From a virus (lineage: Duplodnaviria > Heunggongvirae > Uroviricota > Caudoviricetes): a stretch of DNA of 22,587 nucleotides. The notes under the pieces are model-generated. The model was not told the DNA's origin. It saw only the letters and a program-made list of their open reading frames with translations, and did no database searches. Location: positions 1-22,587 of the IMG/VR virus record IMGVR_UViG_2547132415_000022; one strand, 5' to 3'. This document shows, piece by piece, positions 1 to 18,697 of this stretch; the stretch's first letter is position 1, and each line of letters begins with the position of its first letter. Made by a program: the position numbers and the translations under genes.

Positions 1-1509
1 AGAACGGCGAAAAATAGCACCAAAAGATGAATTAAATATCCTCAGTGCATTGACTGTAGATATTTTTACTTCACTGCTGAAAAGGGCTTTAACAAGAACA
101 TACAGAGCATCCCATTTAAGATGCATCAGGTCTTTTGTTGTGGTGCTCTGGCGACTTCTCCATTTGAAATATTCATTGCCGTTGTCGCCTGTTTCAAACC
201 ACATATATGAATCAGTATCGCTGTCGGCATCATTTTTAAATCCAATCTTTGCCCAGTCAGTATTTCGAATCCAGGCAAGGATTGAGTCGTTTTCAAATGT
301 AAGCCCACCGGACAAGGTATCGCCATTCTTTTGCACCGCGTTCCTGGCTCGGTTTTCCGTTTCCTGTAAACCGAGATATTCGATAACGGCGGCAACGGTC
401 GATTTCGCAAGAATATCTCGCCCGACTTTTGTCAGGATTGCCAGGCTGGCAACATCATTCCCCGTAAAATACGGAAACCTGTCTGCCGCAGTAACAAGCC
501 CCGCCAGCGCCGTCAAAGTGGCATCTTTCGGTTGCTTACCCGCAAGCGCATTAGTCATGGTGGTAGCAAAATTCGGGTCATTGCCCAGCGCCGCTGCCAG
601 CTCGTTCAGCGTATTCAGTGCGTCAGGCGACGAGTCTACAAGGGCGGCAATCGCGGCCATAACGAAAGCCGTGTTTGCGATCTGAGTATTATTCGTTCCC
701 TGTCGCGCAGTTGGCGTCGTTGGCGTTCCGGTCAGTGCAGGGCTGTTTAATGGCGCTTTTTGGTTCGTTTCATCCATTACCGTCTTAACAGCTTTTGGTG
801 TTGCGGCGAGCGTTTCAGACATGCTGTTGGTCGCACTACTTAGCTGGACAAGACCTTTTCGCGCTGTGGTAGCGTCCTGTGCGGTATATTTCCCGTTAGC
901 AAGGTCATATGCGGCCTTAACCGCTTTCGGCGTTGCGGCCAGTGTTTCAGATATGCTGTTGGTCGCACTGCTTAACTGAGTAAAACCTTTTGCGGTCAGC
1001 GAGGCGTCAGGGTGACGTCGTGACTGTTCATGTTCTGCAATTTTGTCATCAACGTAATCCTGCGTTGCCATCACCGTTGTGGTGTCAATGGTCAGCGCCA
1101 CTGAGGCCACACTGCTGACGATGATGACCATGCGGCAGGTCTGCGAACGCCCTGAGCCTTCGGCAAGGGCAGGCTTATAACTTTCGGCCATGTTCGCCAC
1201 GGCAATTAACGTTCCCGCATCATCGTACAGGCCAAGCTCACGCATCCAGAAACCGCCCACCTCCGGCGGAATAACCAGCTCTGCGATAATATAATTACTG
1301 TTTCGTTTGTCCTGGCTGATTTTGTTCAGCGCATGTCGCCAGACTTCGTGGATAAGCCCGGTCTGTCCGGCATCCGGGACAGGCAATTTACCACCGCCAT
1401 CCCCGACGGCCATCGTGGTAATGTTGACCTTCCGCCTTCCCGGCGCGGTTGCCGCTGCCAGCTTTGCTGCACCGGCAGTGGTGATAACGGTTCTGAATTT
1501 TGTGCTCAT
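1..1509 (-). CDS. H: Tail fiber protein H, N-terminal ~503 codons; the gene continues past the left edge of the window (partial)
   Basis: Minus-strand ATG at 1507-1509 with a GAGGA RBS just upstream; translation begins MSTKF, matching the P2 gpH N-terminus as I recall it. Internal in-frame repeats encode QLSSATNS(M/I)SETLAATPKAVK-like units. Lies immediately downstream of I in P2 gene order. Not in the ORF track because no stop falls inside the window. Confidence 0.85.
   Translation of the reverse strand, partial: MSTKFRTVITTAGAAKLAAATAPGRRKVNITTMAVGDGGGKLPVPDAGQTGLIHEVWRHALNKISQDKRNSNYIIAELVIPPEVGGFWMRELGLYDDAGTLIAVANMAESYKPALAEGSGRSQTCRMVIIVSSVASVALTIDTTTVMATQDYVDDKIAEHEQSRRHPDASLTAKGFTQLSSATNSISETLAATPKAVKAAYDLANGKYTAQDATTARKGLVQLSSATNSMSETLAATPKAVKTVMDETNQKAPLNSPALTGTPTTPTARQGTNNTQIANTAFVMAAIAALVDSSPDALNTLNELAAALGNDPNFATTMTNALAGKQPKDATLTALAGLVTAADRFPYFTGNDVASLAILTKVGRDILAKSTVAAVIEYLGLQETENRARNAVQKNGDTLSGGLTFENDSILAWIRNTDWAKIGFKNDADSDTDSYMWFETGDNGNEYFKWRSRQSTTTKDLMHLKWDALYVLVKALFSSEVKISTVNALRIFNSSFGAIFRRS
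780..1010 (-). repeat. Two tandem, in-frame copies of a ~132 bp unit inside tail fiber gene H (approximate bounds)
   Basis: Read directly: cttaacagcttttggtgttgcggcgagcgtttcagacatgctgttggtcgcact (from ~784) recurs as cttaaccgctttcggcgttgcggccagtgtttcagatatgctgttggtcgcact (from ~916), ~85 percent identical by eye. Confidence 0.7.
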
Positions 1510-1519
1510 TATTCCTCAC

Positions 1520-2050
1520 TTATCCGGGGTAAACCGTAATTACATCGCCGTCGTAAGCCACACAACCGGCGAACAGGTAGCCGGGAATGTCCCGGGTAAT
1601 GTTCAGGCCAATAAGGTGGCGACTTGCAGGTTTGGCATCAGCAATCAGCCGTTCCATTTCCTGATACATTGCCTCTGTGATGCCGCTTTCCAGTACACCA
1701 ATATCAAGCCTGAAGGTGCCTGGCGGGTCACTGTTTTCCCACCACTCCGTCACGTTGATGAGATAGCCGAGCGGCTCCACCACACGCCGGATTGCGCCGA
1801 TAGTGCCTTTATGACAGTGGATGAAATAGGCATCGCGGATAACGGCGCGTTTTGTCGCTTCCGGCCACTTTTCATCCCACCTGTCGACCGAAAACGCCCA
1901 CGCCAGCCACGGCAGCAGATTTGCCGGGCAGGTGTCCGGGTTCCACAGCTCACGAATACTGACCGGCGTTTTTTCAATTTCCGCACAGGCTTTTGCGGCG
2001 GCGACTTCAAGCGGTGATGAGCCGGTCGACAGCAGTCGCGAATCACTCAT
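1520..2050 (-). CDS. I: Baseplate assembly / tail protein I
   Basis: 176 aa ORF, same length as P2 gpI as I recall it; position between J and H. Protein begins MSDSRLLSTGSSPLEVAAAKACAEIEKTP. Confidence 0.85.
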   Translation of the reverse strand: MSDSRLLSTGSSPLEVAAAKACAEIEKTPVSIRELWNPDTCPANLLPWLAWAFSVDRWDEKWPEATKRAVIRDAYFIHCHKGTIGAIRRVVEPLGYLINVTEWWENSDPPGTFRLDIGVLESGITEAMYQEMERLIADAKPASRHLIGLNITRDIPGYLFAGCVAYDGDVITVYPG

Positions 2051-2951
2051 CCGAGCCTCCGGTCACGACGCTGTATTCGGTGCAGAAAGACGCCTGCGTA
2101 CTGTTGAGCACAATGTCGGCCAGTGGTGCGGCCAGCTCGACACGCTGCACGCCTTCCACATGCAACGCGGCATAAATGGCAGACAGACGGATGTCGCGCC
2201 CCAGCCGGTGCTGTGCCGTGATGTACGCTTCCAGCTTTTTCACGGCAGCAGCGCGGATGGGTTCGCTTTCGGGACCAGGGTAAAGGTAAAGCGTGGCGTT
2301 TATCTGGTATTCAACGATGGCGGCAGACTGCACGGTCACGCGGTCGGCCACCGGCCTGACGTCCTCGCCATTAAGGGCGTTACGCACCACGGCCAGCAGG
2401 TCTTCGGATGCGACGCCGTTATTTTCACGTGACAGCACAGAGATAGTGACGCAGGCCGGAGACGGACTGGTGACAGAGATATCCGCGACACGCCCGTCGG
2501 CACTGCGGCCATGATACTGATAGGCTCCCACCGACCCGGCGACGCTTAAGCCCTCAAATGCCTGCTGAATACGCAGACGATAATCGGTGTCAGATTCCAT
2601 CACTGCCGGTGTCGGCGGAATGGTCGAATCATCTGCCGGGGTGATAATCAGGCGCGTGGTGTTGTAATTGGCACCAATTACATCAAGGTCATTACCGGCG
2701 GCACAAGCCAGCATCACCGCCCGTGCGGCCTCATTCACACGCTGACGCCAGATAAGCTCACGATAAGCATTTTCCTCCAGCAGTTTGACGAGAGGCTCAG
2801 ATTCCAGCGTCAGGGTACGGGCGACCGCCTCCTGCTGGTCTTCCGGGTAAAGGGAAATCAGTGTCGCCTTGCGTTCGGCAAGAATGGTTTCAAAGTCCAG
2901 CTCCTCGACCACATCCGGTGCGGGTAGCTGATTCAGGTCGATAATCGGCAT
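2043..2951 (-). CDS. J: Baseplate assembly protein J
   Basis: 302 aa ORF beginning MPIIDLNQLPAPDVVEELDFETILAERKA, recognised as P2 gpJ; overlaps I by a few nucleotides, typical of translationally coupled tail genes. Confidence 0.9.
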   Translation of the reverse strand: MPIIDLNQLPAPDVVEELDFETILAERKATLISLYPEDQQEAVARTLTLESEPLVKLLEENAYRELIWRQRVNEAARAVMLACAAGNDLDVIGANYNTTRLIITPADDSTIPPTPAVMESDTDYRLRIQQAFEGLSVAGSVGAYQYHGRSADGRVADISVTSPSPACVTISVLSRENNGVASEDLLAVVRNALNGEDVRPVADRVTVQSAAIVEYQINATLYLYPGPESEPIRAAAVKKLEAYITAQHRLGRDIRLSAIYAALHVEGVQRVELAAPLADIVLNSTQASFCTEYSVVTGGSDE

Positions 2952-2955
2952 GGTT

Positions 2956-3303
2956 TCAACTCACAGGAATGGTTAACGAAAGTGGCTGGCCGGTGTCGTT
3001 GTGCTGACCGGTTAACGTGACCGTCATTCGCCCGTCAAAACTGCGCTCAGTGGTGACGGATGACAGGGTGACGCGGGGTTCCCATTTCAGTACCGCCATG
3101 TAACAGGCGACCTTAATCTGCAACTCAAGCGCCAGGGTCTGCGGCTGGTCAATCATTGACGCCAGCAACGAACCGTAATCACGACGCATCACCCGTGAGC
3201 CGACCGGCGTGCGCAGGATATCGCCGATACTCTGGCTGATATGCTCAAGGTCAGTGACAGTCAGGCCATCACAGCGATTCATTCCGAGATAACGTGCTGT
3301 CAT
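2956..3303 (-). CDS. W: Baseplate wedge protein W
   Basis: 115 aa ORF, same length as P2 gpW as I recall it, between V and J. Confidence 0.85.
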   Translation of the reverse strand: MTARYLGMNRCDGLTVTDLEHISQSIGDILRTPVGSRVMRRDYGSLLASMIDQPQTLALELQIKVACYMAVLKWEPRVTLSSVTTERSFDGRMTVTLTGQHNDTGQPLSLTIPVS

Positions 3304-3935
3304 AGAGGACTCCCGGTTGTGCCGCCGCTGTCGCCGGGGTGTTTATGGGTATGCAGTACCTTACCGTTTGATGAGAGTTCACCGCCGGTGTGTTCAATGT
3401 TGCCGCGCATCGTCCCGCCCTTCTGTACTTCCAGCGTGCCGGTAATCAGCCTGTTGGTGCAGACCACCTCCGGTGTGTCCAGGGTGATGCGGGTTGGCGC
3501 TTTCACCATGACCACCGGCACCGTGGCGGTAACAGAATCAGAAGCCGTCACGCTGGCCGTTTTAATTCCGCTTACCGTGAGTGCACTGGTTTCAGGTTCA
3601 TACTCAATCACCGCCCCGTCAGGAAAACGGATATGCAGGGCATCCGCCGACGCAGACGGCGCGGGGTTATCGCCGGAATAAATCCCCGGCAGAACGAACG
3701 CCGTGTCGAGTTCACCACCCACGGCCAGAATCAGCACCTGCTCCCCCACGGAAGGTGCCCACCATGTGCGCGAACGACCGGCACGATGGGTCAGCCACTG
3801 AAGCCAGTCGGTGCACATGCCACCGGTCTGCACACGGCAGCGACCGGCTTTAAGGTCGGTTTCTACGACAAGGCCAGTACGAATCATGTTGCGCAGTGCG
3901 CGCGCGAGTTCCTGAATATTTGCGAGAGTGTTCAT
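3300..3935 (-). CDS. V: Baseplate spike / central hub protein V
   Basis: 211 aa ORF beginning MNTLANIQELARALRNMIRTGLV, recognised as P2 gpV; 4 nt overlap with W. Confidence 0.9.
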   Translation of the reverse strand: MNTLANIQELARALRNMIRTGLVVETDLKAGRCRVQTGGMCTDWLQWLTHRAGRSRTWWAPSVGEQVLILAVGGELDTAFVLPGIYSGDNPAPSASADALHIRFPDGAVIEYEPETSALTVSGIKTASVTASDSVTATVPVVMVKAPTRITLDTPEVVCTNRLITGTLEVQKGGTMRGNIEHTGGELSSNGKVLHTHKHPGDSGGTTGSPL

Positions 3936-4001
3936 AACGGGAAGGATGCCGCCGGGTCATACCGGCGGCAATGTGACGATGAGGTGTCGGGAATGGCACA
4001 A

Positions 4002-4454
4002 CTAACGGTCGAGGTGCGCCAGAATAATCTCTTCAATCATCTGCACATCCTCACCGGTAAAGCCGAGCAGGGGACGCGCCGGATAATCAATTTTCTTACC
4101 GTCTTTTCGGTTTTCTTCCGACAGACCAAACTGATGCACACTGGCGATTTTCGGCGACTTCCCGCCGTAAAATTCCATTGATGCCTGCTCCGGGCTGGCG
4201 CGGATATGCAAAAAACGACTGGTGATAAGTTTCGCAAACATTTTTCGCTTAACACGACCGGTCTTTTTTCTGGCGCTCTGCTGCTGGCGTGGCGCGTAGG
4301 GTGTGCCGTCCGGGGCTTTCTGTGCCATCACCCGACGCTGCTGACTCTGCCGCAGACGTTTTGCCAGTTCGGCACTCAGTCGCCGACGCCCTGACGGTGA
4401 CAGCGACTCAATCAGTCCGGTCAGCCGGTCTTCAAAACGCTTAAACTCATTCAT
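4002..4454 (-). CDS. S: Tail completion protein S
   Basis: 150 aa ORF beginning MNEFKRFEDRLTGLIESLSP, recognised as P2 gpS. Confidence 0.85.
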   Translation of the reverse strand: MNEFKRFEDRLTGLIESLSPSGRRRLSAELAKRLRQSQQRRVMAQKAPDGTPYAPRQQQSARKKTGRVKRKMFAKLITSRFLHIRASPEQASMEFYGGKSPKIASVHQFGLSEENRKDGKKIDYPARPLLGFTGEDVQMIEEIILAHLDR

Positions 4455-4914
4455 CCCACTTGCTCACCAGTTCGCCATTGATATAAAGCTCCATCGGGCG
4501 GGTGACCGGCTCCGGCGGCGGAGGTTCCGGGATATTCTTCACATGCAGCGCACCGTCCACCTCACTGACCAGCGTGCGCTCGGTCAGCATCAGGCTGATG
4601 CTGATATCAAAGCTGCTGTCATTGTTGATGTCTGCATAAAACGTGAAGCCCTTTTTCTGGCCTGCGTCGGTGGTCATGATGTCGGGCTGATTTTCCCGCA
4701 GCCACGCCAGCACCGGCACGATGAGCAGGTCAAAATCACCGGTAAAGTCGGTCACAATCACATTGAGCGTGTAACGCTTTTCGAATGACAACGACGCCGC
4801 CAGTGTGGAGGCAATACTCCCGTTATCCACGAATATCCGCAGCATATCGGGGTTAGTTTTCAGCACCGTGACGGCATCAGTCAGCGCCCTGCGCAGGCTG
4901 TCGGGTTTGAGCAT
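4447..4914 (-). CDS. R: Tail completion protein R
   Basis: 155 aa ORF beginning MLKPDSLRRALTDAVTVLKTNPDMLRIF, recognised as P2 gpR; overlaps S by 8 nt. Confidence 0.85.
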   Translation of the reverse strand: MLKPDSLRRALTDAVTVLKTNPDMLRIFVDNGSIASTLAASLSFEKRYTLNVIVTDFTGDFDLLIVPVLAWLRENQPDIMTTDAGQKKGFTFYADINNDSSFDISISLMLTERTLVSEVDGALHVKNIPEPPPPEPVTRPMELYINGELVSKWDE

Positions 4915-8215: not shown

Positions 8216-9289
8216 TTACGCTCCCGGCTCTGCGGTCGCTTTAGCCGGTGTGGAAAAATCACCGACCTTAATTTTTTCCACCAGACAACCGGCGGCGTAG
8301 TCTTCCACCACGTAATCAATGTTCATTGACTCGTAGTTCTCCACGCGGTCGAGTTTCGGGTTTTCCACAATCACGCGGCGATGGCTGTCATCCATGTAGT
8401 AGATGGACAGGTTTTCCAGCTTCGTGATGAGCATCGCATCCGCCGGGAAGTACGGGACGCGTACCGCCGGCAGGTTACCGATGCGTTTCTGACTGATGAT
8501 GACGTCAGCGGCCAGCATTTCGCTGTTGTCCTGCTCTTTGTTGACGATGGGGAAATACTTGTCCGCCAGTAGCTGACGCCCCACAATCACCACAAGGTCA
8601 GGGTCTTCCTGATACCAAGGTTCAATCAGGTTGTTGGTCGCATCCATCACCAGTGCATCGAGGCTGGCATAATCACCGCCCTTACCCACGCGGATGACCT
8701 CAGAGGTCGTGTGACCTTCCTCGTCAGTAACCTTGCTCATCACGCGCGCCGGGGCTTCATTGCGGTATTTCTGCAGCCAGCCGACCGCCACATCCTGCAG
8801 CATCGGATTGCTGCTGCGGTCAGAGGTTTCGGCACGCTTCACGCCGTTAAAACCGGCCATGATGAAATCAAGGGACTGGCGTTTGATAATGGCGTTACGG
8901 ATACGGAGCTGGAAATCCTGATAACGCGCCCACAGGTCCAGCGTTTTGTAGCGGATATAAAAATCGAAGTTAATCTGGTCGCATTCGTACTTGTTTGACG
9001 CCAGCTTCGAGAAGTCCTTCGGCTGACGCTCGGTGCCACCGGCGGTGTCGGTGGTGCTGGCGATGGAGCCGGTGACACCGATGCCAATTTTTTCCCCTTT
9101 CATTTCGCTGACCGGCACAATATTGATGCGGGTCAGAAAGTCAGAGGACTCCTGCATGGTGTTCATCAGGGTCTGGGTGACCGACGGTTCAACGGTGAAT
9201 TTTTTCGACACATCACCGGCGTCGATGCCGTTCAGCTCGGCAACACGGGACAGGTAGGCATTAAATTTAAAGCGGGTTTCCTGGCGCAT
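8216..9289 (-). CDS. N: Major capsid protein N
   Basis: 357 aa ORF beginning MRQETRFKFNAYLSRVAELNGIDAGDVSKKFTVEPSVTQ, recognised as P2 gpN. Confidence 0.92.
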   Translation of the reverse strand: MRQETRFKFNAYLSRVAELNGIDAGDVSKKFTVEPSVTQTLMNTMQESSDFLTRINIVPVSEMKGEKIGIGVTGSIASTTDTAGGTERQPKDFSKLASNKYECDQINFDFYIRYKTLDLWARYQDFQLRIRNAIIKRQSLDFIMAGFNGVKRAETSDRSSNPMLQDVAVGWLQKYRNEAPARVMSKVTDEEGHTTSEVIRVGKGGDYASLDALVMDATNNLIEPWYQEDPDLVVIVGRQLLADKYFPIVNKEQDNSEMLAADVIISQKRIGNLPAVRVPYFPADAMLITKLENLSIYYMDDSHRRVIVENPKLDRVENYESMNIDYVVEDYAAGCLVEKIKVGDFSTPAKATAEPGA

Positions 9290-9347
9290 AGTTTTTCCTG
9301 AAATTAAGGGTTAATCGTGAAGGTTTTTCCGGACTGACTGACGCCGG

Positions 9348-10202
9348 TCAGCAGTTCGTCATCAGGGCGTCACCGCCACCGCCGGTGGCCTTGCTGCGGC
9401 GCTGCTGGGTCAGACTTTCGGTGTGGTCGAGACTGTTTTTCAGGCGGGTGAATGCCTGGCTGGTTTCATCCGCCCTGTTAGTCACCTCCTGCTTAAGTGC
9501 GGAAAAGGCGGTTTCCATCTCAGCGAGTCGCTGCTCAGTGGCGCTCAGCTTTTCCTGCACATGTTCAGCAACAGCGGTCACCGCTTCATGCACATCATTC
9601 AGACGGGCGTCATCGCTGGCCTGTTTGCGGCCAAAAATGGATTTCACCTTTTCGGTCAGGGCGGTGAACACGGTTTCAGGCAGGTCTTCAAATTCCAGCT
9701 CAACAGGCGTTGCCACTGAAATCAGGTTTTCAGGGCTTAATTTGAAGCGGTTCAGGGGGTTGTGTTTTGCCGTGCGGCAGAATTCCAGGTATTCCGTGCC
9801 GAGGCTTGCCGGGTCATCGGTGACGGCCAGACCCACCAGATAACATTTGCCGGTGTTGGCAAAGTTCGGCTGAATTTCCATTGAGGTGTAGACCTTCTGC
9901 GCGGCCTTGTTCATCGCGATAAGGTCATCGGTCGGGGTGATTTTCGCAAACAGCGCCCATTTGCCTTTCAGCGCCGAATCATCGTCAATCTTTTCGGCCT
10001 TCAGTTCGGCCACATCGCCATAACGCTTAAAAATACCGTCAGGCAGGATGCCGCGCAGATGTTCCAGGTTAATGCGGCAACCATAGACTCGCGGGTCAAA
10101 GGTTTCGGCCATTTCCTGAATATCCTGCGCACTGATGACACGCCCGTCACAGGTGTCACCCTCAACGCCGATACGAAAGAATTTTGAGACTTTTTTTGCC
10201 AT
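9348..10202 (-). CDS. O: Capsid scaffolding protein O
   Basis: ORF-track frame 9348..10268, with the probable true start at the internal ATG 10200-10202 (MAKKVSKFFRIGVEGDTCDGRV), giving 284 aa as in P2 gpO. Confidence 0.88.
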   Translation of the reverse strand: MAKKVSKFFRIGVEGDTCDGRVISAQDIQEMAETFDPRVYGCRINLEHLRGILPDGIFKRYGDVAELKAEKIDDDSALKGKWALFAKITPTDDLIAMNKAAQKVYTSMEIQPNFANTGKCYLVGLAVTDDPASLGTEYLEFCRTAKHNPLNRFKLSPENLISVATPVELEFEDLPETVFTALTEKVKSIFGRKQASDDARLNDVHEAVTAVAEHVQEKLSATEQRLAEMETAFSALKQEVTNRADETSQAFTRLKNSLDHTESLTQQRRSKATGGGGDALMTNC

Positions 10203-10375
10203 TGTCAGGAGTCCTGAATAGTGATTAGAGGAGTCACATGTCGGCATCAGTTTCCCGACGATGCGCATCCTCCGCCATCAGTCCCGGATGGCTTATCACT
10301 GACACAACAGCACCTTAGCGAATCGCGGGGCGCGACTCAGTAGCCTTGCCGTGTATTCATCACGGCGAGGTATTC
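10203..10375. promoter_or_regulatory. Divergent late-promoter region between O (leftward) and P (rightward)
   Basis: 173 bp intergenic region between divergently transcribed late operons, where P2 has its Ogr-dependent late promoters. Contains the perfect palindrome TCAGGAGTCCTGA at 10205-10217. I found no perfect TGT-N12-ACA Ogr site by eye, so the exact promoter elements are not assigned. Confidence 0.5.
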
Positions 10376-12148
10376 ATGACCATCACCACAGACACCACTC
10401 TTTTACACGACCCGCGTCGTCAGGCGGCGCTGCTGTACTGGCAGGGATTTTCCGTGCCGCAGATTGCCGCCATGTTGCAGATGAAACGCCCGACGGTGCA
10501 GAGCTGGAAACAGCGCGACGGCTGGGACAGCGTTGCCCCCATCAGCCGTGTCGAAATGAGTCTGGAAGCGCGGCTGACCCAGCTCATCATCAAACCGCAG
10601 AAAACCGGCGGTGATTTCAAGGAAATTGACCTGCTGGGACGCCAGATTGAACGACTGGCACGGGTAAACCGCTACAGCCAGACCGGCAACGAGGCAGACC
10701 TTAATCCGAACGTCGCTAACCGCAACAAAGGCGGGCGGCGCAAACCGAAAAAGAATTTTTTCAGTGACGAGGCCATCGAAAAGCTGGAGCAGATTTTCTT
10801 TGAGCAGTCTTTCGACTATCAGTTGCACTGGTATCGTGCCGGGCTTGAGCACCGCATCCGCGATATCCTGAAATCCCGCCAGATTGGCGCGACGTTTTAT
10901 TTTTCCCGCGAGGCGCTGCTGCGCGCCCTGAAAACCGGCCATAACCAGATTTTTCTGTCGGCCAGTAAAACGCAGGCGTATGTGTTCCGTGAATACATCA
11001 TCGCCTTTGCCCGTCTGGTTGACGTTGACCTGACCGGTGACCCGATTGTCCTGGGCAATAACGGCGCAAAACTGATTTTTCTCGGCACCAACTCCAACAC
11101 CGCACAGAGCCATAACGGCGACCTGTACGTCGACGAGATTTTCTGGATCCCGAATTTTCAGGTACTGCGTAAGGTGGCATCAGGTATGGCCTCACAGAGT
11201 CACCTGCGCTCGACCTATTTCTCCACCCCGTCCACGCTGGCGCACGACGCCTACCCGTTCTGGTCGGGTGAACTGTTCAACCGGGGACGCGCCAGCGCCG
11301 CCGAACGTGTGGAAATCGACGTCAGTCATAACGCCCTTGCCGGTGGTCTTCTCTGTGCGGACGGCCAGTGGCGGCAGATTGTCACCATTGAGGACGCCCT
11401 GAAAGGCGGCTGCACATTGTTCGACATTGAGCAGCTCAAACGCGAAAACAGCGCCGACGATTTTAAAAACCTGTTCATGTGTGAATTTGTTGACGACAAG
11501 GCATCGGTGTTCCCGTTCGAGGAGCTGCAACGCTGCATGGTCGACACGCTGGAAGAATGGGAAGACTACGCGCCGTTTGCCGCCAATCCGTTCGGCTCCC
11601 GCCCGGTATGGATTGGTTACGACCCGTCACACCGTGGCGACAGCGCCGGATGCGTGGTGCTGGCACCGCCGGTGGTGCCCGGTGGCAAATTTAGAATACT
11701 TGAGCGTCACCAGTGGAAAGGCATGGACTTTGCCACCCAGGCGGAGTCCATCCGCAAACTCACCGAAAAATACAACGTCGAATACATCGGTATTGATGCC
11801 ACCGGCCTCGGTGTCGGCGTGTTCCAGCTCGTGCGCTCGTTCTATCCCGCCGCGCGCGATATCCGCTACACGCCGGAAATGAAAACCGCAATGGTGCTCA
11901 AGGCCAAAGACGTCATCCGCCGTGGCTGTCTGGAATATGACGTCAGCGCCACCGACATCACCAGCTCGTTCATGGCTATCCGCAAGACCATGACCAGCAG
12001 CGGACGCAGCGCCACCTATGAGGCCAGCCGCAGCGAGGAAGCCAGCCACGCCGACCTCGCCTGGGCAACCATGCACGCCCTGTTAAATGAGCCACTCACC
12101 GCCGGTATCAGCACTCCGCTGACATCCACCATTCTGGAGTTTTACTGA
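10376..12148 (+). CDS. P: Terminase large (ATPase) subunit P
   Basis: ORF-track frame starts at 10346; the probable start is the ATG at 10376 (MTITTDTTLLHDPRRQ) with a GAGGT RBS, giving 590 aa as in P2 gpP. Its stop overlaps the Q start (TGATG). Confidence 0.9.
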   Translation: MTITTDTTLLHDPRRQAALLYWQGFSVPQIAAMLQMKRPTVQSWKQRDGWDSVAPISRVEMSLEARLTQLIIKPQKTGGDFKEIDLLGRQIERLARVNRYSQTGNEADLNPNVANRNKGGRRKPKKNFFSDEAIEKLEQIFFEQSFDYQLHWYRAGLEHRIRDILKSRQIGATFYFSREALLRALKTGHNQIFLSASKTQAYVFREYIIAFARLVDVDLTGDPIVLGNNGAKLIFLGTNSNTAQSHNGDLYVDEIFWIPNFQVLRKVASGMASQSHLRSTYFSTPSTLAHDAYPFWSGELFNRGRASAAERVEIDVSHNALAGGLLCADGQWRQIVTIEDALKGGCTLFDIEQLKRENSADDFKNLFMCEFVDDKASVFPFEELQRCMVDTLEEWEDYAPFAANPFGSRPVWIGYDPSHRGDSAGCVVLAPPVVPGGKFRILERHQWKGMDFATQAESIRKLTEKYNVEYIGIDATGLGVGVFQLVRSFYPAARDIRYTPEMKTAMVLKAKDVIRRGCLEYDVSATDITSSFMAIRKTMTSSGRSATYEASRSEEASHADLAWATMHALLNEPLTAGISTPLTSTILEFY

Positions 12149-13182
12149 TGAGCAAGAAAATAGGGAAAACACCGCGACCTGCGGCAAAAACAATCACCGC
12201 CAGCGCCCCGAAAATGGAAGCATTCACCTTTGGTGAGCCGGTGCCGGTACTTGACCGCCGTGACATTCTGGATTACGTCGAGTGCATCAGTAACGGCAGA
12301 TGGTATGAGCCGCCGGTCAGCTTTACCGGTCTGGCAAAAAGCCTGCGTGCTGCCGTGCATCACAGCTCACCGATTTACGTCAAACGTAATATTCTGGCTT
12401 CAACGTTTATCCCGCACCCGTGGCTTTCCCAGCAGGATTTCAGCCGCTTTGTGCTGGATTTTCTGGTTTTCGGTAATGCGTTTCTGGAAAAGCGTTACAG
12501 CACCACCGGTAAGGTCATCAGACTGGAAACCTCACCGGCAAAATATACCCGCCGTGGCGTGGAGGAGGATGTTTACTGGTGGGTGCCGTCCTTCAACGAG
12601 CCGACAGCCTTCGCGCCCGGCTCCGTGTTTCACCTGCTGGAGCCGGATATCAATCAGGAGCTGTACGGCCTGCCGGAATATCTCAGCGCCCTTAACTCTG
12701 CCTGGCTGAATGAGTCGGCCACGCTGTTCCGCCGCAAGTATTACGAAAACGGCGCTCATGCCGGATACATCATGTATGTCACCGATGCCGTGCAGGATCG
12801 CAACGATATCGAAATGCTTCGCGAAAACATGGTCAAGTCGAAAGGCCGCAACAACTTTAAAAATCTGTTTCTTTATGCCCCGCAGGGGAAAGCCGACGGC
12901 ATTAAAATTATCCCGCTCAGTGAAGTGGCAACGAAGGACGATTTTTTTAATATCAAAAAAGCCAGCGCCGCTGACCTGCTGGACGCGCACCGCATCCCCT
13001 TTCAGTTGATGGGCGGCAAGCCGGAGAACGTCGGGTCGCTGGGTGATATTGAGAAAGTGGCAAAGGTCTTTGTCCGCAATGAGCTTATCCCGCTACAGGA
13101 CAGGATCCGCGAGATAAACGGCTGGCTCGGTCAGGAGGTCATCCGCTTTAAAAACTACTCACTGGACACTGACAACGGCTGA
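12148..13182 (+). CDS. Q: Portal protein Q
   Basis: 344 aa ORF, same length as P2 gpQ as I recall it; last gene before cos, as in P2. Confidence 0.9.
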   Translation: MSKKIGKTPRPAAKTITASAPKMEAFTFGEPVPVLDRRDILDYVECISNGRWYEPPVSFTGLAKSLRAAVHHSSPIYVKRNILASTFIPHPWLSQQDFSRFVLDFLVFGNAFLEKRYSTTGKVIRLETSPAKYTRRGVEEDVYWWVPSFNEPTAFAPGSVFHLLEPDINQELYGLPEYLSALNSAWLNESATLFRRKYYENGAHAGYIMYVTDAVQDRNDIEMLRENMVKSKGRNNFKNLFLYAPQGKADGIKIIPLSEVATKDDFFNIKKASAADLLDAHRIPFQLMGGKPENVGSLGDIEKVAKVFVRNELIPLQDRIREINGWLGQEVIRFKNYSLDTDNG

Positions 13183-13187
13183 ACATC

Positions 13188-13209
13188 GCCGCCTGCGGGC
13201 GGCTTTTTT
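13188..13209 (+). terminator. Rho-independent terminator downstream of Q
   Basis: GCCGCC-TGCG-GGCGGC stem-loop followed by TTTTTT, starting 6 nt after the Q stop codon. Confidence 0.6.
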
Positions 13210-13338
13210 ACACCCTCACATGCTCACCACCGCACAAAACCCCCCGCAGACACACCAACGCCCCGGCGCACAACCCAAACGCCGTCACGACGCGCTGAGA
13301 CGCTGAAAAAATAAAATCAGCACCACCGCCAGCGCGCA

Positions 13339-13357
13339 GTGCTTTCCCCGCCTCGCC
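13339..13357 (-). other. cos site, 19-nt cohesive-end sequence
   Basis: gtgctttccccgcctcgcc is the reverse complement of GGCGAGGCGGGGAAAGCAC, which I recall as the P2 cohesive end; the adjacent ~60 bp toward Q also match my recollection of the P2 left end in reverse complement. Confidence 0.7.
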
Positions 13358-13687
13358 CGCCCGCTTCATGGGGCGGTTTTGATGCAATACATGAGCATCG
13401 TAATGCCATATCGTGACAGGATTATAGAACATGAAGGTATACTAACTTACACATGCAAAAAAACGCACACTCAGGCATTCTCTTTGGAATACAATATGGT
13501 AAAAATATGATCATTTGAAGCTGCATATCCGTGCAGATTGAAATCAATGATGCTGCCCCTTCGTTAAGACAGCCAGGCCGCAATCTCTTGAGCTCAAGTG
13601 GACATCTAAGACAGAAAAACAATTTAAAGGCAAAGTTTTCGTAATGGTATCTTTGTCACAGCACACGCTAAAAAGGAACTAAACCTC

Positions 13688-14752
13688 ATGAGCACTCAGC
13701 AAGTCCTCAACATCCCTACAGCCGTATCGCAAGCGACCATCGAAAAATGGTTGAAAGGACTGGAACAGACAACGGAATTAGCCTTTTTTCGCCGTGTTGG
13801 CGGGCGGCATGGCTTCAATGTTACGAGCCGCTGGGCAAGTACATTGGATAACTTGAATAAAACTCTGAATGACCCATCGAAGCAAGGTACGCCTGCAAAC
13901 TTTTCAAATCTCCGTTTGATTACGTTAAAAATAATCACTAGCGTAAACCATTATTATTCAATTGATGGTATTAAATCAGGAACCATTAATTTAATACCAA
14001 ATATAATCAACTACCCTCACCTCGATAAAACATTTAGCTCAGTATTTCCAATAAAACTTGATGATAATACAGGACTTCCTTCGACTCCTGGGCATTTCAT
14101 TACTTCCATCGAAAAAATGGGGGATGGTATTGCTGTAATATATTCCTATATTATTTTAAGAAAAATCCAAGGAAGGAGTAAGCTACGTAGCAATCAATAT
14201 CCAGAGCAGTACTTCAACACTGTTTTCATCCCTAATGATTTAAGCCGTATAGAATATCGGGTTGATAAATCACTAGGTAAAAGAGCGTCTGAAAAAGCGA
14301 TGGCAGATTTGCGCGCAAAATTTAATGAATTACTCGTGGAACTTAATATTAAGTTAGCTGTTGAAACTATAAATTTCTACAAAGCAATTTCCAATATTTA
14401 CCTTGACAAACAATATGGAAGACTTGTTCAGGTTAATTTCCTTGATCCAAATGGAGATGAGGATGCTGTTCTTCGTTGCAGAACAGACCCCAATTATGAT
14501 GCCCGTTATCGCGAGGTTGTATCTAAAACTCAGAACGGAACACCTCGCTCATTGACCCTTGAAGTTTCTGGCGTTGCAGTGCGATTAGATAGTAAAGTTG
14601 CAAACGAAACAATTTCAAATGAAATTGGTTTTGAACCCAGCAAAACTGATTGGTCTACAAACAAATTTTGTGGGGATTTTTATTTTACACAAACAGCAGA
14701 TCATCAGGTGCATTATGGGGTGATAAATGATTTACTCACAAGAGCGAAATAA
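13688..14752 (+). CDS. Hypothetical protein, 354 aa; first gene of an AT-rich cargo cassette; no recognisable catalytic motif
   Basis: ATG at 13688 with an AGGAA RBS 9 nt upstream; strongly AT-rich (roughly mid-30s percent GC by eye) against a >50 percent GC backbone; not a P2 gene; no Walker A or other motif found on inspection. Confidence 0.7.
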   Translation: MSTQQVLNIPTAVSQATIEKWLKGLEQTTELAFFRRVGGRHGFNVTSRWASTLDNLNKTLNDPSKQGTPANFSNLRLITLKIITSVNHYYSIDGIKSGTINLIPNIINYPHLDKTFSSVFPIKLDDNTGLPSTPGHFITSIEKMGDGIAVIYSYIILRKIQGRSKLRSNQYPEQYFNTVFIPNDLSRIEYRVDKSLGKRASEKAMADLRAKFNELLVELNIKLAVETINFYKAISNIYLDKQYGRLVQVNFLDPNGDEDAVLRCRTDPNYDARYREVVSKTQNGTPRSLTLEVSGVAVRLDSKVANETISNEIGFEPSKTDWSTNKFCGDFYFTQTADHQVHYGVINDLLTRAK

Positions 14753-15161
14753 AAAAATGCGCTCATTAGTGTATAAACAAAGAGTACTCCTGGAGAATGC
14801 CGGAAGCTCTTCTGTTTTCATAAATAATGATTCTCACATATATTATACAAATTTACTAGAATATGTAGAGGGTGATCTTGATCGTAATATTTATACAATC
14901 CCAGTATTACGAAAAGCCATAAAAACTGACAATTATGAACATTTGCTACGAGTTGTTCAATTTTTTAGTAGCAATACCTCCTGTTTATTTAACGTTAAAT
15001 ATTGCTACGAACTAGAAAACATGGAGTTTGAGGACATACAAGCTGATGAATATACCAACTATATATTAAACGGAGTTGAACCTGTAACTGCCAATGGTTC
15101 TGAAATTGAAGACTTCAATCCAAAATATCTTTCATTTTATTGCATAATAAACCTGGATTGA
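14727..15161 (+). CDS. Hypothetical small acidic protein, 144 aa (134 aa if it starts at the ATG at 14757); second cargo gene
   Basis: Overlaps the 3' end of the first cargo gene by 26 nt, suggesting translational coupling; same AT-rich composition; no recognisable motif. Confidence 0.6.
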   Translation: MIYSQERNKKMRSLVYKQRVLLENAGSSSVFINNDSHIYYTNLLEYVEGDLDRNIYTIPVLRKAIKTDNYEHLLRVVQFFSSNTSCLFNVKYCYELENMEFEDIQADEYTNYILNGVEPVTANGSEIEDFNPKYLSFYCIINLD

Positions 15162-15166
15162 CTGTC

Positions 15167-16027
15167 ATGAACAAACAACAAATCACATGTGAGTTAGGCA
15201 AAAGGGTTCATTTTGAAGATGAAGCGAGTTTTATTGAAACATTATACTCGGATATAGAAGTCATAATAAAACTAATGGAGCAATCTAGTGACAAGTATTA
15301 TTGTGATGATGAAGATAAACTAAGCCATACAATTGTAGCCTCTCTTGTACACCTAGGTTACGATGCAACCGAACAAACAAAAAAAAATGGAAGTGTGGAC
15401 ATAACCGTTCGTCCGAAAAATGGAGGATATACATGGATTGCTGAAGCAAAAATCGGATACGGGAACCAAAAAATATTCGAGGGGCTACTTCAGTTGCTTA
15501 CTCGCTATGTTAAAAGAGATAATCATGCAGGCATGGTTATCTATTATCAAAAATCAAAGTCATCTTATCATTTCAAACAATGGCTGAAATACATATACAA
15601 CCATGAGTGGAAGGATTATTGTACAAAGAAAGGGTCATTAAAAAAAGCGACTCCGCTACTTTCTCATTTAAAAAGTACGGTTTGTCCGAAAGTCAAACAA
15701 GGCTGTTGTTATGCTGACATTGATGTCATCCAACCTTCGACTGATGGTCTAAAACTTCGCTGCTTCTATATTGACGTGCATCATGACCCAATTGACAGTA
15801 GTGGTTTAAAGAATAAGTCAATCGCCTTTGGTCAAGCCCAAAATAGAATTAGAGATTTATATCACTTATGGAAGACAGGACAGTTCGACGGCAGTATGAT
15901 AGATGAATTATTTGAAGAAATAAAAATATATCATAGCAATGAACTTGACGAAGAATATGAAGATGAAGATGAAGATGAAGATGAAGATGAAGATGAAGAT
16001 GAAGATTCGAATATAAACTCAAAATGA
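15167..16027 (+). CDS. Hypothetical protein with a PD-(D/E)xK nuclease-like motif and a poly-acidic C-terminal tail; third cargo gene (ORF track starts it at a TTG at 15140)
   Basis: ATG at 15167 lies 5 nt after the stop of cargo gene 2. Protein contains GSVDITVRPKNGGYTWIAEAKIG, a D-x15-E-x-K pattern in a strand-like context resembling the restriction-endonuclease fold active site. C-terminus is EEYEDEDEDEDEDEDEDEDSNINSK. Confidence 0.65.
   Translation: MNKQQITCELGKRVHFEDEASFIETLYSDIEVIIKLMEQSSDKYYCDDEDKLSHTIVASLVHLGYDATEQTKKNGSVDITVRPKNGGYTWIAEAKIGYGNQKIFEGLLQLLTRYVKRDNHAGMVIYYQKSKSSYHFKQWLKYIYNHEWKDYCTKKGSLKKATPLLSHLKSTVCPKVKQGCCYADIDVIQPSTDGLKLRCFYIDVHHDPIDSSGLKNKSIAFGQAQNRIRDLYHLWKTGQFDGSMIDELFEEIKIYHSNELDEEYEDEDEDEDEDEDEDEDSNINSK
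15959..16006 (+). repeat. Perfect hexanucleotide microsatellite (GAAGAT)x8 inside cargo gene 3, encoding a poly-Glu-Asp tail
   Basis: Eight uninterrupted GAAGAT copies read directly from the sequence; in-frame. Confidence 0.95.
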
Positions 16028-16040
16028 ACACCAAGAATCA

Positions 16041-16074
16041 CCCCATTAAGTTTAGACATCCTAACTTGATGGGG
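16041..16074 (+). terminator. Hairpin downstream of cargo gene 3, possible terminator between the convergent cargo operon and gene A
   Basis: CCCCATTAAGTT / AACTTGATGGGG, a 12-bp stem with one G-U mismatch and a 10-nt loop, starting 14 nt after the stop; no strong U-tract follows, so terminator function is uncertain. Confidence 0.3.
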
Positions 16075-16161
16075 AATTGACTTTTAAGTCTGTAACCCTA
16101 GCCATCAAAAATAGATTCATTTTAAATAAAAATATATCCGTTACGCCCAAAAAAAATTGAA

Positions 16162-18432
16162 TTAATTAGGAAAAACACTCCCAGTTGGAATTTTTTTAAA
16201 TTTATATTTCCTCCCATCGAAACATACTGTCGCACCGCGTGCTAATACCTGTGGTTCCCATTGATTCGGCGTAATACCCTCCTGAGCCAACTCGAATCTT
16301 ATACGTGGCGTCTGTTCCCGTTCAGCTTTTGTCATTCGTCCTGAGGGCGCTATCTGATAAGGTTTTAATGGCTCACAGCTCTTTTGCTGGCGATTTGGTC
16401 GTGGCGCATCGTGTTTTAGTGCGCATCTGAGCACCGTCACGACTTCAGGGTCATCCCAGCCGATAACCCCGCGCTCAATCAGATTCAACACCGCTGCTGC
16501 TTGCTCAGAAGGTATGGATGTCATAGCAGGATCGCCACCGCTAGTTAGCTTTCCACAGTTATTGACAGGACTCCGAGGCGCGGCGATGCCGCTTTTTAAA
16601 GTCAAAGGCTCAACGACCGGAACTTTCGGCACAATGCGCCAGTCCGTCGTTCTGGTGATATGAATATGACGCGCGCCGAGATGCGGCGCGTAAATGCCGA
16701 CCACCCTCTCGACCTCTTCCTCGTACTCGTTAACGTCATCCGACGGGCTACGGGCGACTCTGACAGTCTGACAATCGCGCGGGACATTTGCCCCACCCTG
16801 CGCGCTGATATACAACGCAAAATCACCACTGTCTGCGGCGGCGCGTGCAGCCTCGACGCGCTCGTCAAACTCATCAGCAATGCTGACGCCGCGCGGCAAT
16901 TTGCGTAGTTCACGGTAAGCCCCCATTGTCGGCAGACCAACCGTTTTAAATTGCGGGATGCGCCACGTTGACGCCCATGCGGTAACAGCCGCAGCAGTGT
17001 CTTTCAGCGGCCTGCCGGTATCGTTATCGAGCTGACCATCCAGTGCATAGCCGTCGATGTTTTTTGAGATGTATTTCGCGATATACCCCGCAGCACCGCC
17101 CCGGTTAAGGTGTTTTGCCTGAAAACGGTTTCGCGCGGCTCCTCTTTCATCGCCATCCTCTTTGAGCGCATAGCGACGCATGATTTCGATAATCTGGTTA
17201 CGCTGGCGCGGATTACAAAAAAGCATCATATGCCAGTGCGGCGTTCCGTCGTGGTGTGGCTCGACGACACGCAAACCGTAGACCTGTAAATCATTATCCT
17301 TGAATGCCGTGCGCATCAGGCTCCAGATACGGCAGAGATAACGCTGCGCATCCTTTGGATTAAATGCCTCATCGTTCCAGCCGTGATTTAGCTGGACGGT
17401 TTTACTTTCGCCTTTTCTGACCTGACGTGTCGGGTGATACTTTGACGGCGCGGTCAGCGTGATAAACATCCCCACATCACCCTCTGCTGCGGCGTAACGC
17501 TCAATACCGGCAATGGTGTTCATCAGCTCCATCCGGCGAATTTCAGGATTAGAAATACTGCCCATCACCTTACTGATAAGGTCGATGCGCTCGCCGGTTT
17601 CCCTGTTTTCGAGATCACACGATTTAAGAAATTCCAGATTTGCCTGGCGGCGTGCACGCACATCACGAATGGCATGTTTACTGGCATAAGGAGAACGGTC
17701 TTTATTGACCTCCCCGACAGCAATCAGTAACGCCTCATGCCAGCGCATACGCTGGCCTTTAAGCTGATGGGTCCACCACTCATCGTTAAACAGACGGGCA
17801 ATGGCAGAATATGCCTGCCTCGTGGTCATCTGCCCTTTACGGTATTTTTTCCAGTAGAGCGGGGAAATATTGAAAGCACGTGCAGCACCAGCAACATGAC
17901 CATAGAGGTGAGCCTGCGCCTCATCCGTAAACAGCGATTCTTTTTCGCCATGCGCATCCCCCCAGGCATCGCAGAGTTCCTCATACATCATGAAAAGCTG
18001 CGATGAGATACGGGCGGCAAACTTTTTCAGCTCCTTGTCATTCATCCCCGGCAGACGCGCATAATGGTCACGCTCTGCCAGAAACAGCAACGACGCGTCG
18101 GTGTTCATTTTATGGCGCTGATTCACACGCTCAATGCGCGGCCATAAACGACGCTGAAAAGTGGATGTGAGAAAATAAAACCCGTGCACCGGGCTTTTAT
18201 TGCGCCGGATGTAGTCATAGCGTGACGTAAACAGCGAGCGCAAAAAGTAAGGCAGGCGGTTAATCGTGGATAAAACACCTTGCACCTGACGCATCTCGTC
18301 ACGTGTAAGGGGTCTTTCGCGCCCGACAGCCTCGCGTGGCGCGTTCCATGCATAAGCACCGGTAAACGCCTTACCGGTGCCTGCGGCAAATGCTGACGGA
18401 GGGACAAAACGCCCGGAGGCTTTAACGGCCAT
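16162..18432 (-). CDS. A: Replication initiation endonuclease A (rolling-circle initiator)
   Basis: ORF-track frame 16162..18474 (TTG start); probable start is the ATG at 18430-18432 (MAVKASGRFVPPSAFAAGTGK), as I recall for P2 gpA. Contains the HUH-like PHWHMMLF and the paired-tyrosine YIAKYISK motifs expected of this nicking enzyme. Confidence 0.9.
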   Translation of the reverse strand: MAVKASGRFVPPSAFAAGTGKAFTGAYAWNAPREAVGRERPLTRDEMRQVQGVLSTINRLPYFLRSLFTSRYDYIRRNKSPVHGFYFLTSTFQRRLWPRIERVNQRHKMNTDASLLFLAERDHYARLPGMNDKELKKFAARISSQLFMMYEELCDAWGDAHGEKESLFTDEAQAHLYGHVAGAARAFNISPLYWKKYRKGQMTTRQAYSAIARLFNDEWWTHQLKGQRMRWHEALLIAVGEVNKDRSPYASKHAIRDVRARRQANLEFLKSCDLENRETGERIDLISKVMGSISNPEIRRMELMNTIAGIERYAAAEGDVGMFITLTAPSKYHPTRQVRKGESKTVQLNHGWNDEAFNPKDAQRYLCRIWSLMRTAFKDNDLQVYGLRVVEPHHDGTPHWHMMLFCNPRQRNQIIEIMRRYALKEDGDERGAARNRFQAKHLNRGGAAGYIAKYISKNIDGYALDGQLDNDTGRPLKDTAAAVTAWASTWRIPQFKTVGLPTMGAYRELRKLPRGVSIADEFDERVEAARAAADSGDFALYISAQGGANVPRDCQTVRVARSPSDDVNEYEEEVERVVGIYAPHLGARHIHITRTTDWRIVPKVPVVEPLTLKSGIAAPRSPVNNCGKLTSGGDPAMTSIPSEQAAAVLNLIERGVIGWDDPEVVTVLRCALKHDAPRPNRQQKSCEPLKPYQIAPSGRMTKAEREQTPRIRFELAQEGITPNQWEPQVLARGATVCFDGRKYKFKKIPTGSVFPN

Positions 18433-18697
18433 ATGAGCCAAAAGCCTCTGAACAACGCTTGCTGAGTTGCTCAACCTGCACGTTTAAATCAGCAAAAGAC
18501 TTTGCGCTTCCGGTCAGAATATCGTGATGCATCAGGCCGGAAACGAGCTGGCTTAATTTCGGGTAATAACCAACCACCGACAGCCATTCCTGACCGGCGT
18601 TTTTACCGCTTTCCGCTCTCTTTTTCTCGTGGAGAATAAACTGAAAGCTGTCACTGGTAACGACATAACGTTCGCCAATTTCAATACGAATACTCAT
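18422..18697 (-). CDS. Small early-operon protein, P2 orf83-like
   Basis: 91 aa ORF immediately upstream of A, overlapping its start by 11 nt; occupies the orf83 position of the P2 early operon. Confidence 0.6.
   Translation of the reverse strand: MSIRIEIGERYVVTSDSFQFILHEKKRAESGKNAGQEWLSVVGYYPKLSQLVSGLMHHDILTGSAKSFADLNVQVEQLSKRCSEAFGSYGR

Follow-up and report, generated by a model that had tools for sequence, protein, structure and literature searches.

A predicted RdgC-like fold in the largest protein of a three-gene mobile cassette from the hotspot of a P2-like prophage

The window analyzed here is a stretch of 22,587 nucleotides (IMG/VR virus record IMGVR_UViG_2547132415_000022, positions 1 to 22,587), which its open reading frames (ORFs) and synteny identify as a P2-like prophage of Escherichia coli. 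Between its portal and replication genes lies a low-GC cassette of three co-directional genes, the first and largest of which (gene 1; positions 13688..14752, plus strand, ATG to TAA) encodes a basic protein of 354 residues (isoelectric point, pI, 9.06) with a predicted RdgC-like fold. We slightly favor the view that the cassette is a mobile candidate anti-phage system of three genes, in which gene 1 supplies the nucleic-acid-binding, non-catalytic subunit and probably forms a dimeric clamp or horseshoe. In such a system, a gene 1 dimer would clamp DNA, or a replication or recombination intermediate of the phage, and the clamping would license the putative PD-(D/E)xK nuclease encoded by gene 3 to cut DNA, with the small acidic, winged-helix-like protein of gene 2 serving as an adaptor or a brake. 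A more specific version, which we put forward only tentatively, would have an RdgC-type DNA ring co-opted by nuclease immunity to serve in sensing or loading; its threading onto, or clamping of, phage-typical DNA (for example free ends, replication or recombination intermediates) might then be relayed via gene 2 and switch on the nuclease.

The fold of gene 1 was derived from an AlphaFold2 model, computed from an alignment of 24 sequences, with a predicted local distance difference test (pLDDT) score of 87.4 and a predicted template-modeling (pTM) score of 0.87. The model runs from four helices (residues 15-85) through a beta-alpha-beta4-alpha unit (88-218) to a beta-alpha-beta(n)-alpha unit (223-353), and from its DSSP string we infer an N-terminal helical domain followed by two TBP-like modules in tandem, arranged as in RdgC. 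Foldseek ranked RdgC first among the structural matches of the model, with a probability of 0.82, and the alpha/beta domains of the model have the RdgC-like arrangement. The N-terminal stretch delimited by DSSP (positions 13688..13942, plus strand) carries the conserved motifs LEQT..L and GF..(S/T)RW. It is followed on the same strand by the first TBP-like module (residues 86-220, positions 13943..14347), which is composed of beta1 88-98, a helix 100-108, strands 135-144, 147-159, 170-182 and 187-193, and a helix 198-218. The beta4-beta5 hairpin of this module holds the family signature FNTVFIPN...R-x-E-Y-R-x-D (residues 176-193, positions 14213-14266). The second alpha/beta module (residues 221-354, positions 14348..14749, plus strand) consists of a strand 223-227, a helix 231-239, strands 245-252, 260-263, 292-304, 307-315 and 331-334, and a closing helix 342-353. 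RexA, RdgC, Iml3 and Chl4 have been placed in one group of DNA-binding folds (PMC11077077), and every top structural match of gene 1 that aligns over a long stretch is a DNA-binding or scaffold protein without enzymatic activity. The fold of gene 1 (RdgC/Iml3/CENP-L, the RexA group) is one of DNA binders and complex scaffolds rather than of enzymes, and gene 1 is far closer to RdgC in structure than RexA is. Indirect support for a possible ring-shaped homodimer with a basic central pore that binds DNA comes only from the basic pI and the many invariant arginines of gene 1.

An earlier note on this DNA, made from the sequence alone, had described gene 1 as an orphan without a recognizable catalytic motif and as a possible sensor or scaffold. 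The label of orphan agrees with the lack of any match in Pfam, NCBIfam, PADLOC and PDB sequences (phmmer and profile searches), and it has to give way where a small but real family and a recognizable fold are concerned. Of the remote-homology and structure searches that the note proposed, the structure search led to the specific fold of RdgC, and the sequence and profile searches gave no link to it. Clear homology to an enzyme or to a phage structural protein was looked for and none was found, and because the fold group comprises non-enzymatic DNA binders and scaffolds, sensor or scaffold remains the best reading of gene 1. The same note had taken the Lys/Glu/Leu-rich stretch EKAMADLRAKFNELLVELNIKLAVE (residues 201-225) as coiled-coil-like, from which gene 1 might be imagined as a coiled-coil scaffold holding the other two proteins together. 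The model contradicts this, since the region forms a single 21-residue helix (198-218) that closes the first module, packs on the beta-sheet within the globular domain and is succeeded by the strand 223-227. No helix of the model is long enough for a coiled coil, and we give such a scaffold hardly any credence.

Gene 1 is a real gene under strong purifying selection. A run of 354 stop-free codons has a chance of about 2e-12 at the local base composition, and the remaining five frames across the gene contain 17-38 stops. The start methionine is common to all 23 close homologues in the alignment, which are 44-77% identical, 351-359 residues long and all from Enterobacterales. In comparisons with copies from Serratia, Enterobacter and Citrobacter (76%, 55% and 45% identity), the ratio of nonsynonymous to synonymous substitution rates (dN/dS) comes to about 0.06-0.13, with dS saturated and three further pairs giving no estimate. 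An exhaustive hidden Markov model search of 1.84 billion representatives found about 27 family proteins at 50% identity, and the full-length members are single-domain proteins of about 300-365 residues. The only library match of gene 1 is phrog_12777, a family of unknown function (4.5e-8).

Conservation across this family also bears on whether gene 1 could be catalytic. The invariant positions of the close family include ten arginines, and among its many charged invariants are E189, R191, D193, D259, D271, R273, D301 and H342. When relatives with as little as 17% identity are included, only P121, P182, E189 and R273 stay invariant across the family, with R191, G147, G244 and C328 nearly so; R273, G244 and C328 belong to the second module, and E189, R273 and R191 are located on strands or loops of the modules in the model. 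One might therefore see gene 1 as an enzyme or a small-molecule binder with an unrecognized active site that makes or senses a signal controlling the nuclease, as the many invariant charged residues of the close family and the occurrence of TBP-like and helix-grip modules in such proteins would allow. However, the four residues kept throughout the family make up no catalytic constellation, no enzyme family matches gene 1 by sequence, and the structural matches with long alignments are, as described above, non-enzymatic. In agreement with the earlier reading that no catalytic motif is discernible, a motif scan found no Walker A, nucleotidyltransferase or CxxC motif in gene 1. We regard an enzymatic or ligand-binding role as very improbable, and we retain a non-catalytic nucleic-acid-binding subunit as the preferred reading.

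The nuclease activity of the proposed system would reside in gene 3 (positions 15167..16027, plus strand), which encodes a PD-(D/E)xK nuclease-like protein of 286 residues with a C-terminal (ED)n tail. E49, D78, E93-A-K95, Q109 and R113 are invariant among 22 sequences down to 24% identity, and gene 3, as read from its sequence, carries the complete nuclease motif E...D...ExK...Q. Sub-threshold Pfam matches recur in the family (PDDEXK_9 in 6/22 members, Mrr_cat in 3/22), gene 3 matches phrog_9664 at 7.5e-74, and one homologue is named 'Restriction endonuclease' in UniRef. A match to the PADLOC single-gene candidate PDC-S54 (2.8e-7) covers the nuclease core only, and a profile search of the PDB gave no match. 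The acidic tail is encoded by nine tandem copies of GAAGAT (positions 15953..16006, plus strand), the number of which varies: the copy of the gene in E. coli strain A23 is 18 bp shorter, members of cluster P0025 have 280 instead of 286 residues, and the copy tabulated by Rousset et al. (2022) is also shorter. We considered the tail as a DNA mimic that plugs the basic ring of gene 1 and rejected this as a general mechanism, because most gene 3 homologues lack the tail or have another one in its place, and because the tail arises from a variable hexanucleotide repeat. Salmonella enterica serovar Montevideo commonly carries a variant of gene 3 with 39% identity and, judging from synteny, probably the whole module; one member of cluster P0049 occurs on 605 contigs.

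Gene 2 (positions 14727..15161, plus strand) encodes an acidic protein of 144 residues with a pI of 4.74. The first 26 nucleotides of the gene overlap the end of gene 1, an arrangement that is kept in homologous operons, and a model built from 11 closer sequences predicts a helical hairpin and a winged-helix-like domain. Neither gene 2 nor gene 1 matched any family of PADLOC-DB v2.0.0. No transmembrane segment was found in the proteins of gene 1, gene 2 and gene 3.

The three genes are inherited as one unit. They were contiguous, co-directional and in the same order in 21/21 fetched loci, down to 17-18% identity of gene 1, and start/stop overlaps are conserved among these operons. The most remote relatives of gene 1 (17-18% identity) stand in operons encoding proteins of 360/141/266 and 354/144/203 residues, whose gene 3 is still recognized by the family profile at E-values of 3.5e-41 and 6e-25; gene 2 of the two most diverged loci can be recognized only as an ORF of like size and position. 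The related-locus search, with the close-family alignment and restrictive patterns, came to two species-representative genomes only. This invariance has to be weighed against the alternative that gene 1 is an RdgC-like, DNA-coating modulator of RecA and recombination that serves the prophage, for example by damping SOS induction or by blocking the recombination-dependent replication of competitors, instead of triggering a nuclease. Such a role would be in keeping with the P2 genes old and tin, which occupy the same locus and act via recombination and single-stranded DNA-binding proteins. RdgC, the best structural match of gene 1, inhibits RecA functions (PMC11077077), which fits such a role. 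Yet even very distant relatives keep gene 1 strictly together with a nuclease and a third protein, which speaks for a single machine, and gene 1 has an extra N-terminal domain and no sequence similarity to RdgC. A stand-alone modulator seems to us unlikely.

The module is carried by diverse vehicles. It occupies the P2 Q/A hotspot in E. coli, Enterobacter and Rahnella, and it is found in decayed P2 remnants of E. coli ZH177 and Serratia. In ZH177 (positions 12195-17959 of locus L001) the cassette is intact and the P2 genes V, P and A are truncated, and in the Serratia remnant a truncated gpA is the sole phage leftover beside an intact cassette; a chromosomal site of Cronobacter carries the module with no phage genes left there. 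An intact cassette amid a decaying P2 prophage suggests that hosts are selected for keeping the cassette as such. Other copies lie in a Citrobacter integrase island beside an EcoRII restriction-modification system, at the end of an E. coli lambdoid prophage, in a Pseudoalteromonas chromosome and on a Pantoea megaplasmid. A Vibrio PM2-like (Vinavirales) temperate phage of 14.8 kb (L022, PQ189315) carries the module at positions 1351-3626, adjoining the integrase, where it encodes proteins of 340/141/277 residues and takes up about 15% of the phage genome; the module is therefore cargo common to tailed and non-tailed temperate phages.

Known defense systems recur around the module. In one metagenomic island (L018), whose copy of the module is a distant one, the Septu genes PtuA (1e-139) and PtuB (1.5e-75) lie directly downstream (positions 8482-10591) and a PD-T4-6/mad6-like Ser/Thr kinase lies upstream (positions 3164-4603), along with umuDC and an integrase. 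Another metagenomic island has a type I restriction-modification system upstream of the module, and PDC-S15 is also among the neighbors. The module thus sits in defense hotspots and islands on several unrelated elements, and the treatment of gene 1 as cassette cargo in the earlier note is supported: the gene travels with a mobile set of genes at a site known for defense. A different function could also explain some of this distribution, namely a tripartite toxin-antitoxin or addiction module in which gene 3 would be the nuclease toxin, the acidic gene 2 the antitoxin and gene 1 a regulator or chaperone, so that the module would stabilize its element and any phage defense would be secondary. 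The compact overlapping genes, the small acidic protein next to a nuclease, the persistence of the cassette in decayed prophages and its movement between mobile elements would all be expected of such a module. However, its gene order and sizes are unlike those of known tripartite toxin-antitoxin families, no toxin-antitoxin family of any kind was matched in Pfam, NCBIfam or PADLOC, and the predicted DNA-clamp fold of the largest and most conserved partner is unlike a chaperone or repressor. The recurrent adjacency to restriction-modification systems and Septu fits a defense island better. We judge an addiction module to be rather improbable, and a candidate anti-phage system remains the reading that we favor.

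The cassette itself has been catalogued before. Exactly these three proteins are listed as P2-hotspot system #145, with 14 occurrences and no note, in Table S5B of Rousset et al. (2022) (PMC9122126), under the label 'DUF5939 | DpnII-MboI' with the assignment of proteins to labels not stated. We could not reproduce the DUF5939 and DpnII-MboI labels for any of the three proteins by hmmscan at E <= 1. Predicted, uncharacterized defense proteins of the E. coli pangenome are listed in DefensePredictor Table S10 (PMC13092281), and there gene 1 (WP_004016844) has a log-odds score of 5.66 and gene 2 (WP_024166900) one of 9.39, against a strict cut-off of 4. Our literature search found no mention of the WP accessions and no characterization of DUF5939 or of an RdgC-like defense component besides RexA. 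The cassette is therefore already catalogued and predicted as defense, and what is new is the link through the RdgC fold to RexA.

Several points weigh against a DNA-clamping defense subunit. The similarity to RdgC spans about 205 of the 354 residues of gene 1 with a root-mean-square deviation of 3.6 Å. We detected no sequence-level link between gene 1 and RdgC or RexA (hhalign probability of 0.1% for each with a diverse family profile), and the RdgC profile (PF04381) was not matched by gene 1 and 17 relatives in Pfam scans; what we claim is accordingly a resemblance of fold, not homology or family membership, and a common ancestry with RdgC or RexA is unproven. TBP-like modules also occur in enzymes and small-molecule binders, so that the fold does not guarantee DNA binding by gene 1. 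The nuclease fold of gene 3 is deduced from its motif. The cassette is not among the systems cloned and tested by Rousset et al. (2022) (PMC9122126), and genes 1 and 2 are absent from those tables of tested systems in the DefensePredictor source that were available for this comparison (PMC13092281).

By synteny, the ORFs of the window correspond to baseplate and tail genes, lysis genes, the capsid genes M, N and O, early genes, the repressor gene C and the integrase gene. The terminase gene P (positions 10346-12148; ORFs and synteny) precedes the portal gene Q (positions 12148..13182, plus strand; PF04860 in syntenic loci), which forms the left border of the hotspot, and the replication gene A (positions 16162..18474, minus strand; PF05840 in syntenic loci) forms the right border. 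The Q-A interval of 2.7 kb has a G+C content of 35-41%, compared with 53-57% in the flanking phage genes, and the three-gene cassette has 36%. This interval is the 'old-tin' hotspot of P2-like phages. The hotspot was shown to be a reservoir of anti-phage systems by Rousset et al. (2022) (PMC9122126). Two G+C-rich, terminator-like hairpins with T-runs (positions 13188-13203 and 13357-13376) lie 3' of the portal gene and close the Q transcription unit, and the second matches the conserved 'cggggcggttttaatgca' boundary seen in the P2 hotspot clones of Rousset et al. (2022). Directly 3' of this conserved P2 hairpin, where the G+C content falls, begins the upstream region of the cassette (positions 13386..13687, plus strand), containing a promoter-like site TTGGAA-16-TATGAT (positions 13484-13511, plus strand) identified by its match to the consensus only. 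The ribosome-binding site of gene 1, which the earlier note had called good, is AAGGA (positions 13673-13677, plus strand), 10 nucleotides before the ATG; it is acceptable, with a spacing that is slightly far.

At the DNA level, the cassette was not found in the phage genome collection, and copies of it are in the E. coli strains ZH177 (100% identical locus) and A23 (99.3%), where all three genes are annotated 'hypothetical protein'. ZH177 has a second P2 hotspot, at the Z/fun position and outside the window (positions 5290-7596 of L001), with a SIR2-family gene and a PIN-domain gene, which are probably another defense cargo.

For most defense systems, the chief unanswered question is how they recognize infection. 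RexAB has been known since the 1950s and is still unsolved. A second prophage module built on an RdgC-like fold, wired to a soluble nuclease, would offer tractable biochemistry, in the form of DNA binding and cleavage, for asking what clamp-like proteins sense, and it would bring a protein of the RdgC fold into the defense repertoire. The defensive look of a P2 hotspot cassette is unsurprising in itself; it is the link to RexA through the RdgC fold that makes sensing experimentally approachable and supplies a hypothesis founded on structure for a cassette listed in two large surveys only as 'hypothetical' or 'predicted novel defence gene'. A finding that it gives no protection would still be useful, as an example of non-defensive hotspot cargo.

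Among the known defense systems, Rst_3HP ('hp+hp+hp' of Rousset et al. 2022, from E. coli E1114) is like the cassette in occupying a P2-hotspot locus of a P2-like prophage with three genes without clear domains. Its proteins differ in size and are unrelated, and we rejected the identity of the cassette with this validated system because a blastp comparison of the three proteins with the three gave a best E-value of 0.24. Nuclease-based defense systems in which the nuclease has a non-catalytic partner, among them Shedu and the candidate PDC-S54, are like the cassette, with its putative nuclease, in having a PD-(D/E)xK effector in defense islands. We found no known system pairing such a nuclease with an RdgC-fold protein in PADLOC 2023 and the searched literature. 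The kinetochore proteins Iml3/CENP-L and Chl4/CENP-N are eukaryotic, have no functional connection to gene 1 and resemble it in fold only. RdgC of E. coli (PDB 2OWL, PF04381) is a ring-shaped dimeric DNA binder that encircles DNA and restrains RecA. Gene 1 exceeds RdgC by 50 residues and carries an additional four-helix domain at its N terminus. Whereas RdgC is a chromosomal housekeeping gene, gene 1 is borne by mobile elements, together with a nuclease gene of the same operon.

RexA of phage lambda is like gene 1 in being prophage-encoded and part of an exclusion or defense module, and its conceptual role matches the one proposed here, as it is thought to be the non-catalytic partner that detects a DNA-protein intermediate of the phage. 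RexA thereby provides a precedent for a prophage-borne RdgC-fold protein as a non-catalytic DNA-binding 'sensor'. The partners differ: RexA works with the membrane protein RexB, whereas those of gene 1 would be a soluble PD-(D/E)xK nuclease and a small acidic protein. No RexB-like membrane partner was found, and the maximum Kyte-Doolittle value in a 19-residue window is <=0.78 for genes 2 and 3. If the proposed role of gene 1 is correct, RexA and gene 1 might be two branches of an unrecognized class of 'DNA-clamp' infection sensors that are connected to different effectors, a membrane channel in one case and a nuclease in the other.
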